Shown here piece after piece: positions 1-5,363 of a stretch of DNA of 5,363 nucleotides. The DNA is taken from positions 1 through 5,363 of IMG/VR virus record IMGVR_UViG_2913123054_000002; one strand, 5' to 3'. Position 1 is the first letter of the stretch; every line of letters begins with the position of its first letter. The position numbers and the translations under genes are program-made. Origin of the DNA: a virus. Its lineage: Duplodnaviria; Heunggongvirae; Uroviricota; Caudoviricetes. The notes under the pieces are model-generated. The model did no database searches and was not told where the DNA came from. It saw only the letters and a program-made list of their open reading frames with translations.

Positions 1-141
1 GAGCAGGTGATTCGACACAGCATCGCCAATGAATACCAGGGCTTGTTCGCGCCGAAAGGTGTTCGGCCTGAGACGTTGCCTCGGCAGGTTAACACCGTCT
101 CGTTTCCGGACAGTGCGATCCCACCAGGCTTCAGGGGGTAA
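1..141 (+). CDS. 3' end of an upstream gene (partial; probably the replication-initiator or primosomal partner of the DnaC-like protein)
   Basis: Frame 1 is open from the window edge to TAA at 139-141 (46 codons, ...NTVSFPDSAIPPGFRG*). It ends 6 nt before the DnaC-like gene, and AGGGGG at 133-138 serves as that gene's SD. Identity is inferred from position only; the fragment is too short to classify. Confidence 0.5.
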   Translation, partial: EQVIRHSIANEYQGLFAPKGVRPETLPRQVNTVSFPDSAIPPGFRG

Positions 142-147
142 CGAAGC

Positions 148-894
148 ATGAAAAATATTGCGACAGGCGGCGTTCTGGAACGTATCCGCAGACTGGCCCC
201 GCCACATGTAACCGCGCCATTCAGGACGGTGGCGGAGTGGCGCGAGTGGCAACTTGCAGAAGGCCAGAAACGTTGTGAGGAGATCAACCGTCAGAATCGT
301 CAGTTGCGGGTGGAAAAAATCCTGTATCGCTCCGGCATCCAGCCGTTGCACCGCAAATGCTCGTTTGCGAATTACCAGGTGCAGAACGACGGCCAGCGAT
401 ACGCGTTGAGTCAGGCGAAATCTATCGCTGACGAACTGGTTACCGGATGCACAAATTTCGCGTTCAGCGGAAAACCTGGTACCGGAAAAAACCATCTGGC
501 GGCGGCTATTGGGAATCGCCTGCTGAAAGATGGCCAGACAGTGATTGTGGTTACCGTGGCTGATGTTATGAGTGCTCTACACGCCAGCTATGACGACGGG
601 CAATCAGGCGAAAAATTTTTGCGGGAACTGTGCGAAGTGGATCTGCTGGTTCTTGATGAAATTGGCATTCAGCGCGAGACGAAAAACGAGCAGGTGGTAC
701 TGCATCAGATTGTTGATCGCCGGACAGCGTCGATGCGCAGCGTGGGGATGCTGACAAACCTGAACTATGAGGCCATGAAAACATTGCTCGGCGAGCGGAT
801 TATGGATCGCATGACCATGAACGGCGGGCGCTGGGTGAATTTTAACTGGGAGAGCTGGCGCCCGAATGTTGGTCAGCCAGGTATTGAGAAGTAA
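148..894 (+). CDS. DnaC-family AAA+ helicase loader (prophage replication protein, YdaV/DnaC-like)
   Basis: ATG at 148 with AGGGGG SD 9 nt upstream; 248 aa. Walker [16 protein letters not shown] at nt 469-513 and Walker [10 protein letters not shown] at nt 640-666. The N-terminal region (…[17 protein letters not shown]…) and C-terminal block (…[22 protein letters not shown]…NFNWESWR…) are collinear with E. coli DnaC as recalled from memory. Confidence 0.93.
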
Positions 895-916
895 TTTTTA
901 CCGGGAGGAAATTTTA

Positions 917-1678
917 ATGGAGACCGTTTTTGACGCACTGAAAGCGATGGGAAAAGCCACGTCGGTAGAACTGGCTACGCGACTTGATATCAGTCGAGAA
1001 GAAGTGCTGAACGAGCTGTGGGAACTGAAAAAGGCTGGCTTCGTTGATAAAAGCGTATACACCTGGCGCGTGGCTGATAACAACGTTCAGCAGGAACAGC
1101 CAGCGCCGGCAGAGCTGCCGGAAGAAACCACCATGGCAACAGTAGCGAAAATTTCGGAGAGCGATTTAAAAGCGGCGATTGAGCAACGTGGACCACAAAC
1201 GGCGGATGAACTGGCTACGCTGTTCGGTACCACATCCCGCAAAGTGGCTTCAACGCTGGCAATGGCAATCAGCAAAGGTCGTCTGATTCGCGTAAACCAG
1301 AACGGTAAATTTCGTTACTGCATACCGGGTAATAATTTACCAGCAGAGCCGAAACTTGAATCGGTAGCGGAAACTGATGGTAAAGCCTTTCCTCAGCCAG
1401 CAAGTGTTGCGTTACCGGTACAGAAAGATGCAACACAGGAAGATATTAAAACAGAAACTGTGGCGGACATTGTGCAATCGTTGCCATCGTTTACTGAAAC
1501 GCGCGCGGATGACCTGATTTTACCATCGCTGCATATGGCAAACCGCGAACTGCGTCGGGCGAAAGGCCATGTCCAGAAGTGGGAGCGTATCTGCGCCGCG
1601 CTGCGGGAGCTGAACAAGCACCGGGATATTGTCCGACAGATTGTCGATTCCTCCAGTCGTATTGTGTCGGAAAAGTGA
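917..1678 (+). CDS. Prophage protein with two winged-helix-like segments (possibly DUF1627/YdaW-like); putative DNA-binding protein
   Basis: ATG at 917 preceded by GGGAGG (903-908) at 8-nt spacing; 253 aa. The track start at 866 is upstream of the SD and overlaps the end of the previous gene, so 917 is preferred. Two HTH-like segments: [30 protein letters not shown] and [31 protein letters not shown]. The family name is recalled, not verified. Confidence 0.75.
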
Positions 1679-1693
1679 TTGCCGGGGGCGCTT

Positions 1694-2116
1694 ATGGCAA
1701 AAGTATTTACACAAGAAGAGCGGGAAAAAATTAAGGGGCAGGTTGTTGAACTCGTGCGCCAGAGTGGGCGCGAGACGTTACGACAACTGGAAACCAAGAC
1801 AGGTGCGACAAGATATTTAATGAGCGTTCTCGCAAGAGAGCTGGTCGCCAGTGGTGATGTATACAACTCTGGCTACGGATTATTTCCCTCAGAACAGGCT
1901 CGTAAGGACTGGCAAAACGCCCGCAAAAAACTATCGAGGGCAAAGGTGAAGAAACAGGTTGTGGTTGATCCTGACCTTATCTGGTCATTACCCGACGGAG
2001 AAATACGCCGCTACGACAGGCGTATGAACATAATCTGTCGCGAGTGTCGGAAGAGCGAGGTTATGCAGCGCGTGCTGGCGTTTTATCAGAGGAATTTTCA
2101 GGAGGCGGCGCAGTGA
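1694..2116 (+). CDS. Hypothetical phage protein (140 aa), nin-region-like small gene
   Basis: ATG at 1694 with GGGGG (1684-1688) 5 nt upstream; follows the previous stop by 15 nt. Contains ICRECRK (CxxC). A TTG at 1679 is an alternative start. Stop TGA 2114-2116 overlaps the next start. Confidence 0.7.
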   Translation: MAKVFTQEEREKIKGQVVELVRQSGRETLRQLETKTGATRYLMSVLARELVASGDVYNSGYGLFPSEQARKDWQNARKKLSRAKVKKQVVVDPDLIWSLPDGEIRRYDRRMNIICRECRKSEVMQRVLAFYQRNFQEAAQ

Positions 2117-2319
2117 GCAGGATTGACTACCAGGAATTGGCTGCTGCTAACGCTTTCCTGGCGGATGTGCGGGCGGGGGCGTTTAACGACCTTTGCGCGG
2201 CGTTTGTCAGGCACGCAAAAATTGCAGGACTGGACGATGGCGATCTCGTTACGGTGAAAGAAGCGACTGATGCGCTGCTGCACTGTGCAGAACAGCTTCG
2301 GGAGGGATTCAAGCAATGA
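2113..2319 (+). CDS. Hypothetical small protein (68 aa)
   Basis: GTG at 2113 overlaps the upstream stop (GTGA), with AGGAGG at 2101-2106 at 6-nt spacing. The in-frame ATG at 2044 would overlap the upstream gene by 73 nt and has no SD, so GTG 2113 is preferred. Stop overlaps the next start (ATGA at 2316-2319). Confidence 0.6.
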   Translation: MSRIDYQELAAANAFLADVRAGAFNDLCAAFVRHAKIAGLDDGDLVTVKEATDALLHCAEQLREGFKQ

Positions 2320-2570
2320 GTGAATCAAAATGCCAGGTTAATGGCAATCAGATAGAACCGTGTGTGGCACTGGCAAAATCCCTTGAGCATGATGCTGAAT
2401 GCTCAGTAAGAAAAGGCTTACTGCTATACAAAATCTGGAATGAGAGTTTAACCCGTGGACCTGATTTGGTGATGTTGCGTTCCGGTGAGTTTTCTAAATC
2501 ACCAATTCGAGTTTCATTTTGCCCGTTCTGTGGTGAAAGTCTGAAAACGTGGGAGGAAACCAATGAGTGA
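2316..2570 (+). CDS. Hypothetical small Cys-containing protein (84 aa)
   Basis: ATG at 2316 overlaps the previous stop (ATGA). Cys at positions 6, 16, 29 and a C-terminal CPFCG motif suggest possible metal binding. Stop at 2568-2570 overlaps the next gene start. Confidence 0.7.
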   Translation: MSESKCQVNGNQIEPCVALAKSLEHDAECSVRKGLLLYKIWNESLTRGPDLVMLRSGEFSKSPIRVSFCPFCGESLKTWEETNE

Positions 2571-2991
2571 CCAATGGCGACCAGAAATTTGTCCGATAAC
2601 CGGACGTGCATTTTTTATGTGGATTGAGCATCCAACATTGGGAAATGTGCCGACATATGGTGGCCCATTAGATAGTTACACCATTCCAACAAAGGACGGT
2701 GACGGTGAGTTTTCATGTGAGCGTTATGATCATGATTTTGGCGGTTGGGTAGAAAGCGAATGTCTTGGGTTATATCTGATTGATGATAAAGAGCAATGCA
2801 GAGTCTATGAACTGGAGGAACGCGTTAAAGAGCTGGAGGCGCGGACAGTAGATCTTCCTCAACGGTTACAGCCGGGTGCTGATGGTTATGATGATTGGTA
2901 TGTACACAGCGCAGATGATGGTGAATATCTCAAAGCTGATGATGTTATCGCGGCAATCCGCGCCGCTAGTATTTGCATCAAAGGAGAGTGA
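2563..2991 (+). CDS. Hypothetical acidic phage protein (142 aa) with a short coiled-coil-like segment
   Basis: ATG at 2563 with GGGAGG (2551-2556) at 6-nt spacing; overlaps the upstream stop. Contains ELEERVKELEAR and an acidic C-terminal region (DGYDDWYVHSADDGEYLKADDV). It vaguely recalls Ead/Ea22-like prophage proteins; this is not verified. Confidence 0.72.
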   Translation: MSDQWRPEICPITGRAFFMWIEHPTLGNVPTYGGPLDSYTIPTKDGDGEFSCERYDHDFGGWVESECLGLYLIDDKEQCRVYELEERVKELEARTVDLPQRLQPGADGYDDWYVHSADDGEYLKADDVIAAIRAASICIKGE

Positions 2992-2992
2992 C

Positions 2993-3349
2993 GTGGAAAT
3001 AAAACCAGAAGATGAGTTAAGTAATATTGTTTTATTTCCGGTAAAAGAGGATGACCCACGTAATCAGGTTAATTTTCTTTATGAGCCATCGGAAAGACCA
3101 TATTGCCATCACGCTTCTGTTCGGGTTGATGAAAAAGAGCGTCAGGTCCGATGCAAAATCTGTGGCGCGGTTGTGGAACCATTTGACTGGATGCTCTCTG
3201 TGGCGAAAAGAGAAACCAGACTGGCAGATGATGTAAGGCTATTGCGCCAGGAGGAACAGGAAAGGCGGAAAAATATAGAAAAGCTAATTCAGATTGAGCG
3301 TAACGCGAAAGCACGGATACGCAGGGCGGCAAAAGCCAGAACTGAATAA
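2993..3349 (+). CDS. Hypothetical zinc-ribbon-like protein with a basic, coiled-coil-like C-terminal tail (118 aa)
   Basis: GTG at 2993, 1 nt after the upstream stop, with strong SD AAGGAGAG (2981-2988). The track start at 2876 lies inside the previous gene and gives an out-of-frame Met-rich artefact. Motif PYCHH-x17-CKICG, then a highly charged tail RLLRQEEQERRKNIEKLIQIERNAKARIRRAAKAR. Confidence 0.65.
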   Translation: MEIKPEDELSNIVLFPVKEDDPRNQVNFLYEPSERPYCHHASVRVDEKERQVRCKICGAVVEPFDWMLSVAKRETRLADDVRLLRQEEQERRKNIEKLIQIERNAKARIRRAAKARTE

Positions 3350-3420
3350 TAAAATCAGCGATGTAAATAAAATTTAATCCTTAACCGGAGGGATTTCTGC
3401 ACCCTCAAATCATCCGGAGG

Positions 3421-3436
3421 CCGCCCGAAAGGGCGG
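3421..3436 (+). other. GC-rich hairpin with a GAAA tetraloop (CCGCCC-GAAA-GGGCGG) in the intergenic spacer; candidate RNA regulatory or processing element, not a canonical terminator
   Basis: Perfect 6-bp G/C stem with a GNRA-type loop, read directly from the sequence. No U-tract follows on the plus strand (TAATAAAAAT). On the minus strand the T-run precedes rather than follows the stem. A flanking CCGGAG direct repeat at 3385-3390 and 3414-3419 gives additional pairing potential. Confidence 0.35.
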
Positions 3437-3472
3437 TAATAAAAATAGCTGAACTAATCGGAGAATAAAACG

Positions 3473-3667
3473 ATGAAAAACCGTAAAGCAAAAATTCTGT
3501 TAGCTCGCAGAAACGGTGTTGGGGTCTGGCGATGGTTGAGGATTAGTAACAGACGAGTGAGGTTGACGGGGTGTTGCGGGGTGATGGGTCACAGTTGTTG
3601 CAAAAAGCCCAACGCGGCACAAAACCGCTGGAGAAATCACAGTTCTAAGCAAATTAAATGGGAGTGA
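3473..3667 (+). CDS. Hypothetical small basic Trp/Arg/Cys-rich protein (64 aa); coding status uncertain
   Basis: ATG at 3473 with GGAGA (3460-3464) at 8-nt spacing; the stop at 3665-3667 sits 1 nt before the next start, suggesting coupling. Against: unusual composition, several rare Arg codons (AGA, AGG, CGA), and G-rich DNA with GGGGTG repeats. Confidence 0.42.
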   Translation: MKNRKAKILLARRNGVGVWRWLRISNRRVRLTGCCGVMGHSCCKKPNAAQNRWRNHSSKQIKWE

Positions 3668-3668
3668 T

Positions 3669-3887
3669 ATGACTACACTATTCAGGAAAAATTATCCGCG
3701 AAAGAGCAGAGCAACAGAATTCCTGTTTCTCATTCTGTTTATCGTATTGATGACACCGATATCCCCGCTAATTTTTGTCTGGGTAATCGGGAAAATAATT
3801 GAGCCCGTTATTGAATTGTATAACGACGTGGTATGGGCGTCGTTTAACGCACTACACAATAAAATTAATCCGTATAAGGAAGGTTGA
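3669..3887 (+). CDS. Small single-pass membrane protein (72 aa)
   Basis: ATG at 3669 with GGGAG (3660-3664) upstream. Basic N-terminus (RKNYPRKSR) followed by a hydrophobic stretch FLFLILFIVLMTPISPLIFVWVIGKII. Stop TGA at 3885-3887 is 1 nt before the next start. Confidence 0.6.
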   Translation: MTTLFRKNYPRKSRATEFLFLILFIVLMTPISPLIFVWVIGKIIEPVIELYNDVVWASFNALHNKINPYKEG

Positions 3888-3888
3888 A

Positions 3889-4560
3889 ATGACTGAATTA
3901 ACCAAAGAACAATTAGTCGAAGAAGCTAAATTAAAAATAGCGATTGCGAAATGCCACCCAAATTCAGGGATGGCACAGGTAGAGGGTGAGTTATTCAAAA
4001 TTGCACTGGCATCACTGGAAGCAGAGCCAGTGGCGTGGAAGGCAACCTTCACGCAAATTGATAATGAATATAATACGTTCACTGCTCTGTATTCTGACAA
4101 AGCAGAAGCCGAACGGTGGGTGCAACTGCATGAAATAGGTGACTTTCGGGCAGAAATAACACCGCTTTACGCAGCGCCGCCAGCGATGGTAGTGCCTGAT
4201 GAAATGGATTTGCTTACCTGTCATCTCGACGGTGTAACTGAAACATATGCTGATGGCTGGAACGCCTGCCGCGTCGCCATGCTTCAGGCCGGAAACTTTC
4301 GGGAAAATAAGAATTCGTCAACCAACTCTCCGGGAACTCCGGCTGGCTGGGTAAGCTGTAGTGATGCAGTTCCTGCGGAATACTGCGATGTGATTCTTCG
4401 CGATGATCTCGGGAATGTATTCCCCGGTTCCTGGGATAAGGTTTTTTGCCCCATTCGTGGCGGGAATAAGATGGCTTTTGTGGACAAAGACGGCATCGAA
4501 GTAGGGAGCTCAACTCACTGGATGCCGCTACCGGAACCACCGCAGGAGGTGAATCAATGA
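3889..4560 (+). CDS. DUF551-like prophage protein (223 aa)
   Basis: ATG at 3889 with AAGGAAGG (3876-3883) at 5-nt spacing; the track start at 3799 overlaps the previous gene. The C-terminal region (GWVSCSDAVPAEY…SSTHWMPLPEPPQ) matches the W…HWMPLPEPP signature I recall for DUF551 proteins in enterobacterial prophages; not verified by search. Confidence 0.75.
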   Translation: MTELTKEQLVEEAKLKIAIAKCHPNSGMAQVEGELFKIALASLEAEPVAWKATFTQIDNEYNTFTALYSDKAEAERWVQLHEIGDFRAEITPLYAAPPAMVVPDEMDLLTCHLDGVTETYADGWNACRVAMLQAGNFRENKNSSTNSPGTPAGWVSCSDAVPAEYCDVILRDDLGNVFPGSWDKVFCPIRGGNKMAFVDKDGIEVGSSTHWMPLPEPPQEVNQ

Positions 4561-4640
4561 CCTGGCCTGAGGCATTCACCACGGTAGGAATCGCAATGGC
4601 GGTGGCACTGGTTGTGTATTCGATTTGCCGCTGGGGATAA
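4557..4640 (+). CDS. 27-aa hydrophobic micro-protein (MTWPEAFTTVGIAMAVALVVYSICRWG), absent from the ORF track
   Basis: ATG at 4557-4559 overlaps the upstream stop (ATGA). A perfect SD AGGAGGT (4544-4550) sits at 6-nt spacing. One predicted transmembrane-like segment. The stop TAA at 4638-4640 lies 17 nt before the terminator stem. Confidence 0.45.
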   Translation: MTWPEAFTTVGIAMAVALVVYSICRWG

Positions 4641-4657
4641 AAACTGTCAAATAGAAA

Positions 4658-4676
4658 AGCCCCGATAGCCGGGGCT
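4658..4676. terminator. Bidirectional rho-independent terminator (AGCCCCG-ATAGC-CGGGGCT)
   Basis: 7-bp GC-rich stem with a 5-nt loop. On the minus strand it is followed by TTTTCTATTT, a strong U-tract. On the plus strand it is preceded by AAAA and followed by AAATTTAT, a weaker one. It sits between convergent genes ending at 4640 (+) and 4685 (-). Confidence 0.7.
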
Positions 4677-4684
4677 AAATTTAT

Positions 4685-4840
4685 CTACGATTCACATTTT
4701 GTGCATTTTGGAATTGGGAAGGCTTTTGCTTTCACTGGGTATACGCGTTTTCCTGATTCATCGTGATAGAAGCGACGGAACAAAATTTCGCAAGGTTCTC
4801 CACATTTACTGCATATTTTTTTATTAACAGTCTTTTCCAT
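4685..4840 (-). CDS. Small zinc-ribbon protein (51 aa, MEKTVNKKICSKCGEPCEILFRRFYHDESGKRVYPVKAKAFPIPKCTKCES), absent from the ORF track
   Basis: Reverse-strand ATG at 4840-4838 with AGGA 8 nt upstream; stop TAG at 4687-4685, immediately before the terminator, whose strong U-tract is on this strand. Two CxxC pairs (C10/C13 and C46/C49) are typical of a zinc ribbon. It is convergent to the upstream operon and lies in AT-richer DNA. Confidence 0.6.
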   Translation of the reverse strand: MEKTVNKKICSKCGEPCEILFRRFYHDESGKRVYPVKAKAFPIPKCTKCES

Positions 4841-5014
4841 AAAAGAGTTCCTGTATAAAAACACAAACTGTATTCCTGTTCAGTATTGCGTTTATCTACA
4901 GACCTGATACCCTTGCACATGTCTTTTCTGTGTGCTAAAGGGTGTCAGATCATTACGATCAACCTCCTTATCAATCACACTAGTTGCGATGCTGTAACAT
5001 CACAATCTCTATAG

Positions 5015-5052
5015 CCCCTTGCATCTTGAGTTTTCAGGACAAGGGGTTTTCT
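5015..5052 (+). terminator. Terminator-like extended hairpin followed by TTTTCT on the plus strand; alternatively a structured element in the minus-strand leader
   Basis: CCCCTTG (5015-5021) pairs with CAAGGGG (5040-5046). An inner stem TCTTGA (5024-5029) pairs with TCAGGA (5034-5039), including one G-U pair, around a GTTT loop. TTTTCT follows at 5047-5052. No U-tract follows on the minus strand. Confidence 0.4.
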
Positions 5053-5327
5053 ATGCTCATAACCGAGACCATCTGATCCTGGCGTAAACAAGCCCGTGGT
5101 GCAACCCCTTGCAAGCATGTAACTCATTGAAAAATGATCATTTTATCTGTTGACACGGAATAACAAACTGTCATTGTGCGGCTATGGCAAGTGGCAAATG
5201 CTTATAAATCATATGGATATAAATAGTACAGAAAGAGTTGTTTTCTCTAGGATATGAGTATGCGTCTAATGCTGATTGGTTGAATTTTGTTCTTGTTTTA
5301 AAGGGTAAGAGTTTAAAGTGTTGGCAG

Positions 5328-5363
5328 TGATGTATTGGATAGTTAGAATTGCTGCGGGTGCTT
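5328..5363 (+). CDS. Possible 5' end of a plus-strand gene running off the window (…VLAVMYWIVRIAAGA…)
   Basis: This is the only frame open from 5319 to the window end. Candidate starts are GTG 5328 and ATG 5340, with a weak GAG/AAGGG upstream. Only 12 codons are visible, so this is very tentative. Confidence 0.2.

Follow-up and report, generated by a model that had tools for sequence, protein, structure and literature searches.

A 27-codon reading frame and its translation signals

We analyzed a 5,363-nucleotide stretch of DNA (hereafter the window), positions 1 to 5,363 of the IMG/VR record IMGVR_UViG_2913123054_000002 from a virus of the class Caudoviricetes, with a focus on a very short open reading frame (ORF) at 4557-4640 of the plus strand. 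This micro-ORF consists of 27 codons followed by TAA, encodes the peptide MTWPEAFTTVGIAMAVALVVYSICRWG and shows a conserved frame and length under purifying selection. Its ATG (4557-4559) is the first ATG, GTG or TTG downstream of the preceding in-frame stop, and its TAA occupies 4638-4640. Six nucleotides before the ATG, and separated from it by the spacer gaatca (4551-4556), lies the Shine-Dalgarno (SD) sequence AGGAGGT (4544-4550, plus strand), which is embedded in the codons for Q-E-V near the end of the upstream gene. The pairing energy of this SD with the anti-SD is -11.6 kcal/mol, a strength attained at only 1.5% of the 1093 ATGs in 14 related phage regions.

The upstream gene (3889-4560, plus strand) encodes a protein of 223 residues with an Ead/EaA-like N-terminal part and a C-terminal DUF551 domain. 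Its probable start is the ATG at 3889, which has its own SD, while the corresponding entry in the ORF list begins at a TTG at 3799. The Pfam match to DUF551 (E=1.3e-16) extends to residue 249 of the 253 in the listed ORF, leaving 4 residues before the stop. The micro-ORF itself cannot be counted as part of DUF551, as it lies in a different frame, past the end of the domain, and is also found behind proteins without DUF551. The TGA of the upstream gene (4558-4560) overlaps the ATG of the micro-ORF in an ATGA tetranucleotide (4557-4560, plus strand), which is an arrangement of the termination-reinitiation type. Thus, as read from the sequence, the two form a coupled gene pair, in which the start of the second overlaps or abuts the stop of the first and its SD lies within the first. 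The ORF of 27 residues, the AGGAGGT at 6-nucleotide spacing and the ATGA overlap had all been pointed out in a preliminary description of the window, made from its letters alone, and each of them is confirmed from the sequence.

That description also regarded the micro-ORF as unannotated. This holds for the RefSeq/PGAP records and the metagenome gene calls that we examined, all of which leave it out, but the exact peptide of 27 residues has been deposited with some GenBank genomes under names such as 'hypothetical protein' or 'bacteriophage protein' (for example, AOM45384.1). Gene callers sometimes furnish the micro-ORF with false N-terminal extensions, and C-terminal extensions are seen in gene calls where its stop has been lost at a junction. 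A 90% protein cluster headed by a DUF551 protein of 121 residues proved on inspection to be a clustering artefact, its proteins being devoid of the peptide. The literature search found no paper containing the peptide sequence, and a paper on the exo-xis region (PMC10789677) makes no mention of such an ORF.

Conservation of the frame and selection on the peptide

Loci were collected from IMG/VR with an 18-base anchor upstream of the micro-ORF, CAGGAGGTGAATCAATGA, alone, a procedure that avoids selection for intact copies. An uninterrupted frame of 27 codons was seen in 123 of the 124 copies anchored in this manner, which comprise 20 versions of the peptide differing at up to 11 of the 27 residues. 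Pooling of all loci yielded 58 distinct DNA sequences coding for 34 distinct peptides. Across these 58 versions the summed diversity at codon positions 1, 2 and 3 was 3.6, 2.55 and 8.6, respectively, and the ratio of non-synonymous to synonymous polymorphism (pN/pS) was 0.33 in the frame of the micro-ORF; the two remaining sense frames, both of which contain stops, gave 1.1 and 1.8. Parsimony reconstruction on a tree of the 58 sequences gave 113 synonymous and 95 non-synonymous changes, with 41, 44 and 124 changes at codon positions 1, 2 and 3; the neutral expectation is 25-27% synonymous changes (p<=4e-16), and the corresponding ratio of non-synonymous to synonymous rates (omega) is ~0.3. The amino acid replacements that do occur are conservative and hydrophobic. 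On these comparisons the coding status of the micro-ORF is well supported, and conservation of the frame in homologous prophages, on which the preliminary description had made its proposal of a translated protein depend, is borne out by the anchored copies and the omega value.

On the minus strand, an antisense ORF of 122 residues (4214-4582) extends over the beginning of the micro-ORF and into the DUF551 gene, in a frame that shares wobble positions with the micro-ORF. This antisense ORF is probably spurious, and its start is not conserved in relatives.

Mosaic junctions, genomic setting and distribution

The sequences preceding the micro-ORF differ widely between loci, with at least 6 unrelated upstream C-termini being represented. 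In addition to DUF551 proteins ending in ...WMPLPEPPQEVNQ, these include proteins ending in ...SERMPDDRQEVNQ, in which DUF551 is cut down to the first 16 positions of the model, a zinc-ribbon/coiled-coil protein ending in ...NDLKNIEQEVNQ, proteins without a Pfam domain ending in ...RNGLISVEDILR or ...AAMLKKKGMNQ*, and others ending in ...AVWRLEVR*, ...IAGIGVEVK* or ...HEEGDK*. The 4-nucleotide ATGA overlap was nevertheless found in 160 of 185 instances of the family and a 1-nucleotide overlap in 11 more; one relative shows a GTGA overlap and in another an extra methionine restores the overlap. SD energies range from -6.9 to -13 kcal/mol in nearly all upstream contexts. The differing upstream ends carry purine-rich SDs of their own, namely GGAGGA, GAAGGGGA, TGAGGTG or GAGGAGGGGG, as is the case for the ends VEDILR*, KKGMNQ*, LEVR* and HEEGDK*, each of which provides its own. 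The SD-encoding tail QEVNQ* accompanies the micro-ORF onto unrelated proteins, and is absent from YfdS of Escherichia coli K-12, a DUF551 protein that is not followed by the micro-ORF. The upstream gene can be lost almost entirely, with only a 7-codon remnant of it present in one widespread class (P0022), where the SD and the ORF are still found; likewise, in the SERMPDDRQEVNQ class the micro-ORF cassette persists despite deletion of the DUF551 core.

Since mosaic junctions lie precisely at the start codon and no more than 4 nucleotides from the stop of the micro-ORF, and the SD and overlap are kept behind unrelated upstream genes, the coupling appears to be to whichever gene happens to lie upstream, rather than to DUF551 specifically. 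Hence, of the earlier proposal that the micro-ORF is coupled to the DUF551 gene, the overlap with the upstream gene stands, while its exclusivity for DUF551 does not. The same observations bear on the view that the micro-ORF is a chance ORF, with its SD a by-product of the C-terminal codons of DUF551 and its frame open by accident. This view draws on the shortness of the ORF and on the location of the SD inside the coding sequence of the upstream gene, a concern that the preliminary description had itself raised. It is countered by the fact that the SD-bearing tail lies outside the Pfam model of DUF551, past the end of the match, joins unrelated proteins and is lacking in YfdS, by other contexts supplying SDs of their own, and by the frame conservation and selection results, which effectively refute it; we regard it as scarcely credible.

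Another interpretation of the upstream overlap would have the 27 codons serve as a C-terminal membrane anchor of the upstream protein, reached by a programmed -1 frameshift. The micro-ORF frame is indeed open for 29 codons upstream of the ATG in the window, and a few in-frame fusions are present in the databases (P0031, P0047, P0084 and P0088). However, these fusions are rare, with one to a few contigs each, no slippery heptamer was found within the last 29 codons, and in other contexts the frame closes 3-10 codons upstream of the ATG, all of which leave this interpretation with next to no probability.

In BLAST comparisons of the window with four loci (L350-L353), the first nucleotide within the stretch of 99% identity is precisely 4557, the A of the start codon; with two others (L349 and L354) the identity sets in at the SD, at 4542-4544. 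Mosaic junctions at the borders of the 84-nucleotide frame are what would be expected if this frame is a gene. They could also reflect conservation at the level of DNA or RNA, with the micro-ORF acting as a recombination linker or a structured RNA and its open frame being incidental, given that the junctions cluster at both ends and homology starts and stops at the ORF borders. Against this, changes at the third codon position dominate in the tree, and a linker would not preserve 27 open codons in all but one of the anchored copies. A conserved RNA structure was also not found: the RNAalifold consensus was -3.3 kcal/mol with 1 covarying pair, the fold of the window gave z=-0.8, and nothing reached the gathering score in Rfam, where the only match over the ORF was a sub-threshold one to asX2 (21.6 bits versus 70). 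We therefore consider an explanation at the nucleic acid level very improbable. The junctions at the start codon or SD and at the stop codon show, as far as sequence comparison goes, that the micro-ORF and its ribosome-binding site constitute a discrete mosaic cassette.

Diversity is also pronounced on the downstream side, with about 20 different sequences directly following the stop of the micro-ORF. In 69 loci a DUF4222 gene begins 4 nucleotides past the stop, in 47 the hok promoter and leader come next, and in 14 a P1-type gene begins after 2 nucleotides; elsewhere there are terminators of several kinds, a toxin-antitoxin pair encoded on the opposite strand or another small hydrophobic ORF. 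The last of these was observed in 11 loci (L097, L108 and 9 others), in which it lies about 36 nucleotides past the stop, has an SD of its own (AAGGAGGG) and encodes MSDDISLAMEGALAVIAVVGVYCLVVFLMDRLGN, for which no Pfam match was found.

In many annotated phages the micro-ORF exactly fills an otherwise unannotated intergenic gap of about 85 nucleotides, with the next gene beginning 2-5 nucleotides past its stop. Such tight coupling on both sides, seen in about half of the contexts, would be in keeping with an ORF whose translation matters while its peptide does not, either handing ribosomes on to the next gene, for whose nearby ATG the last codons TGG-GGA could act as an SD, or shielding the end of the transcript from Rho. 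However, about half of the instances have no coupled gene downstream, being followed instead by the hok leader, terminators or opposite-strand inserts, and these encode the same peptide. Furthermore, purifying selection and conservative replacements would be needless in a mere coupling ORF, and this explanation is accordingly quite improbable in our estimate. An arrest or leader peptide was also considered on account of the conserved W-P and R-W-G-stop, and was disfavored because substitutions in the center of the peptide only exchange one hydrophobic residue for another and the ORF is present even with nothing downstream to regulate.

In the window, a G+C-rich hairpin with the features of an intrinsic terminator (4658-4676, minus strand) is located 17 nucleotides past the stop of the micro-ORF. 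The preliminary description had the ORF end just before a terminator, which is correct as to the position of the hairpin; its T-run (TTTTCTATTT), however, is on the minus strand, with AAATTTATCT following on the plus strand. Because of this orientation, the hairpin is interpreted as chiefly terminating a converging minus-strand ORF (4685-4840/4864) and as being at best a weak terminator for the plus-strand operon. This converging ORF (4685-4864, with a probable start at 4840) has 51 residues counted from M9, or 59 as listed, displays CxxC...CxxC motifs and belongs to a single database cluster (P0078; 22 contigs) without a Pfam family. Together with the hairpin it appears to be a small converging moron. 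The entire segment lies in an insert of about 700 base pairs (4641-5340) between the stop of the micro-ORF and the hok promoter and leader, with the shared sequence ending 4 nucleotides past the stop ('aaac'); in loci of the 933W type the hok leader directly follows the micro-ORF. The full insert was found in 1 of 5426 complete E. coli genomes, that of strain A30. The sole promoter-like site detected in 4300-5363 is at 5321-5349 (TTGGCA-17-TAGAAT). In 933W and strain CEA224S, the sequence immediately preceding hok/sok matches this site and the 'attgctgcgggtgctt' that follows it (5340-5363), and from this match the site is probably the hok promoter, followed by the 5' end of the hok mRNA, with hok itself lying past the end of the window.

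With respect to the wider setting, the micro-ORF is the last in a series of accessory genes located downstream of the replication genes, which are represented by a DnaC/IstB-like ORF at 148-894. Close relatives have hok, DUF1367, YbcO and a Q-like antiterminator downstream of the micro-ORF. In other phages it is part of the leftward early operon, between ea22-like genes and xis-int and 2-3 genes before the latter. A DUF4014 gene (3669-3887), coding for 72 residues with a hydrophobic segment, is situated directly upstream of the DUF551 gene in the window. The order DUF4014, variable Ea-like genes and micro-ORF recurs in four loci (L001, L002, L004 and L349) and is not seen in loci of the xis-int type.

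Searches with tblastn, which the preliminary description had suggested for the 27-residue sequence, recovered the peptide in 94 phage records, including the Stx phages 933W, VT2-Sakai, Min27, BP-4795 and YYZ-2008 as well as P1-like and other phages. It was also present in 181 plasmids of Escherichia, Salmonella and, in one case, Klebsiella; 174 of these are non-mobilizable, and they are mostly P1-like plasmids of 90-100 kb. In blastn searches the DNA was detected in 1738 of 5426 complete E. coli genomes (about one third), with up to 8 copies in each and ~3449 E. coli copies in all. The host range reported here rests on the phage and plasmid collections; a genome scan with a loose pattern yielded 4 true members among at least 120 loci.

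Protein relatives were sought with a tandem query of two variants and with a profile headed by a natural variant of 30 residues. The profile search of 1.84 billion representatives retrieved 52 proteins, the distant relatives among which have 25-52 residues, derive from metagenomic phage-like contigs and have in common the motif WP[E/D]AF..G...[R/K]. A Klebsiella phage encodes a version of 22 residues (MDWPTAFCIVGCAFAIAWLFRS) with the same synteny and a TAATG overlap. These matches suggest an undescribed family, carried by temperate phages that infect Escherichia, Shigella and Salmonella and having short relatives in phages of Klebsiella and in metagenomic phage-like contigs. An identical peptide (100%), followed by a hok locus, is also encoded at 1490-1950 of the Actinobacillus phage vB_Apl-pPE4 (PP818812; L360); this arrangement is typical of lambdoid phages of E. 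coli, and the assignment of Actinobacillus as host may deserve to be checked.

The micro-ORF is lacking in lambda and phi24B, and the possibility that it is part of the exo-xis regions of these two phages was rejected on this ground. In phi24B the similarity to the micro-ORF region ends inside the SD. The annotated gene vb_24B_5c of this phage (24 residues; HM208303, 2830-2911; L355) is an out-of-frame reading of the 3' end of DUF551, in the frame that corresponds to the upstream extension of the micro-ORF, and terminates right after the SD. In the CPS-53 prophage of K-12, yfdS (DUF551) is followed by yfdT rather than by the micro-ORF.

Predicted membrane helix and candidate functions

The peptide is typified by a predicted transmembrane helix, the core of which spans A6 to C24 (4572-4628, plus strand) as delineated by hydropathy, the AlphaFold2 helix and residue conservation. 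The mean Kyte-Doolittle hydropathy of these 19 residues is 2.11 (1.71-2.76 across the family), and the 92 short stop-to-stop segments of the window are all less hydrophobic than the micro-peptide. The AlphaFold2 model of the natural variant of 30 residues predicts one helix at residues 3-29 with a mean predicted local distance difference test score (pLDDT) of 86. The transmembrane-like segment of the preliminary description is thus upheld as a prediction.

The helix core is flanked by W3-P4-E5 on the N-terminal side and R25-W26-G27 on the C-terminal side. Across the family W3, P4, A6, G11, A15, R25 and W26 are near-invariant, position 5 is E or D and position 21 is Y or F, while variation in the helix core is confined to I, V, L, M, F, A and T; purifying selection has preserved both flanking motifs, W-P-[E/D]-A and R-W-G. 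W3 and W26 are spaced by 23 residues, which is approximately the distance between two membrane interfaces. In helical geometry, G11, A15 and S22 share one face, opposite to that of A13, A17 and C24. In several classes (P0053-P0058, including P0055, and P0061) a GCGATG/GCGGTG hexamer within the helix has expanded in frame, giving rise to repeats of AM or AV dipeptides (GIAMAMAMAMAVAL...) and to family members of 29-35 residues. A lipoprotein signal peptide was ruled out by the lipobox rule, as Y-S-I precedes C24 and there is no basic n-region.

No match to the micro-peptide was found among Pfam, NCBIfam and PHROG families. We noted sub-threshold similarities of hydrophobic segments to KdpF (TIGR02115; 14.7 bits versus a cut-off of 26.85, over 12 residues only) and DUF883_C (14 versus 27). 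The former does not amount to membership of KdpF, being below the cut-off and with no kdp genes nearby. Similarly, a match to phrog_4612, a family of unknown function (E 0.014-0.08, ~16 bits), was obtained with the window-type variant only and with none of the other variants, and is probably a similarity between hydrophobic segments.

With a length below 50 residues and one helix predicted to span the bilayer, the peptide would belong among the small single-pass membrane proteins of phages and bacteria, in which its own family is undescribed. E. coli has several such proteins, including YohP (27 residues), KdpF, CydX, AcrZ and MgtS, which are small single-pass proteins or accessory subunits that bind larger membrane proteins. 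The micro-peptide resembles these in its size class of 25-50 residues, in its single helix with interfacial aromatic and charged flanks, in being too short for co-translational targeting and in its gene organization, as the genes of several of them lie at the ends of operons and have starts that overlap or are coupled. It differs from them in being phage-borne and mobile, and has no sequence relationship with them. Among phage products, HK97 gp15 and T4 Imm are small inner-membrane effectors of superinfection exclusion. Like these, and like holins and antiholins, the micro-peptide would be a short phage membrane protein without an enzymatic domain, encoded by a mosaic accessory element. However, it is much shorter than gp15 and Imm, and its gene is located in an early operon rather than in a moron that has its own promoter and terminator and is expressed from the prophage. 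A role as a holin modulator, which had been suggested earlier, is disfavored by the position of the gene outside the lysis cassette, between the replication genes and hok/Q or between ea22-like genes and xis-int, and no holin family was matched in the Pfam, NCBIfam and PHROG scans.

Taking these features together with the conservation of the frame, we think it likely that 4557-4640 is a genuine gene for a single-pass inner-membrane micro-protein of 27 residues, belonging to a family of temperate phages. Several points weigh against this interpretation. The summed Hessa insertion energy of about +0.2 kcal/mol is marginal. Some of the data came from patterns in which both ends of the peptide were required, so that those statistics describe ascertained intact copies, and only the set of 124 upstream-anchored copies is free of this bias. 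In 55 of the 58 variants the antisense frame with shared wobble positions is likewise open, and its pN/pS is similar; this similarity is expected from the shared wobble positions, and the antisense frame has neither a conserved start codon nor conserved flanks. The peptide is absent from the supplementary tables of a ribosome-profiling (RIBOseq) study of the Sakai strain, under the conditions of which prophage early genes are expected to be silent. Finally, co-occurrence of the micro-ORF with any single neighboring gene is weak and the neighborhood analysis points to no partner; indeed, as the neighbors are soluble and variable, none can be read from the operon.

As to expression, the micro-ORF would be transcribed as a delayed-early gene by read-through from the early promoters, and ribosomes finishing the upstream gene may reinitiate at the ATGA with the aid of the strong SD. 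Synthesis of the peptide would thus coincide with activity of the early operon, following infection or induction but not in the repressed lysogen. Since a chain of 27 residues would be completed while still inside the ribosome tunnel, its insertion into the membrane is predicted to be post-translational, as has been described for other very small membrane proteins. From the acidic E5 flank on the N-terminal side and the basic R25 flank on the C-terminal side, an N-out/C-in orientation is expected in which W3 and W26 occupy the two interfaces. A comparable topology is known from the Pf3 coat protein, where N-out/C-in insertion without a signal peptide goes with a single helix between a short, acidic N-tail and a basic C-tail. 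This likeness is a predicted one and extends to the topology determinants only, as the micro-peptide is non-structural and comes from tailed temperate phages.

The small-residue faces suggest tight helix-helix packing, and thereby favor a modulator that either self-associates or binds a host inner-membrane protein. Of these two, the partner would more likely be a host inner-membrane protein that is modulated early in phage development. Tentatively, then, we propose a mobile micro-gene, comprising an SD and 27 codons and exchanged at its start and stop codons, whose product might be an early effector that binds a host inner-membrane protein and alters the outcome of infection, for example through exclusion of superinfecting phages, control of a transporter or protease, or the balance between lysis and lysogeny.

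The same small-residue faces could instead mediate oligomerization of a membrane-damaging peptide, akin to a type I toxin, a mini-holin or Kil, that depolarizes the inner membrane; this question concerns the function of the gene and not its reality. Toxins of the DinQ, ShoB and Ibs types are comparable in size and hydrophobicity, and the micro-peptide shares with type I toxins (Hok/Gef, Ibs, ShoB, DinQ and TisB) the character of a small hydrophobic peptide of prophage or plasmid origin. Moreover, the micro-ORF is often the immediate upstream neighbor of the hok/sok locus, lying directly upstream of the hok promoter in 47 of 187 family instances and in the lineage of the window; the presence of two opposite small-residue faces and the tolerance of in-frame AM/AV expansions of the helix also agree with such a role. 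However, no match to Hok/Gef (PF01848) was obtained with two family variants in a Pfam scan at E<=1, nor was any other toxin or holin family matched. A Sok-like antisense RNA or a mok-type leader is not in evidence, there being no Rfam match for an antisense RNA family and no nearby promoter-like site, and with ATGA coupling in place of a leader. In type I toxins translation is typically under tight repression by a structured leader, which is the opposite of the strong SD and coupling seen here in a polycistronic early operon. The gene is in the early region rather than in a lysis cassette, and the peptide has only one charged residue on each side and no polar C-terminal tail. A membrane-damaging function thus seems to us rather unlikely.

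About one third of complete E. coli genomes, clinically important Stx phages and P1-like phage-plasmids carry a gene that is skipped by RefSeq and whose product is contained in no protein family library among Pfam, NCBIfam and PHROG. That a gene of 84 nucleotides could be recognized from sequence alone is owed to the conservation of its frame, its codon-position pattern and the mosaic junctions that hug its borders. For genetic work on the carrier phages this means that deletions or polar mutations in the neighboring ea22/DUF551-type genes will also remove or uncouple the micro-ORF. Phage micro-proteins acting in the host membrane form a small set, to which this one is added as a candidate; should the proposed role as an early effector be true, it would be an unrecognized player in Stx-converting and P1-like phages.

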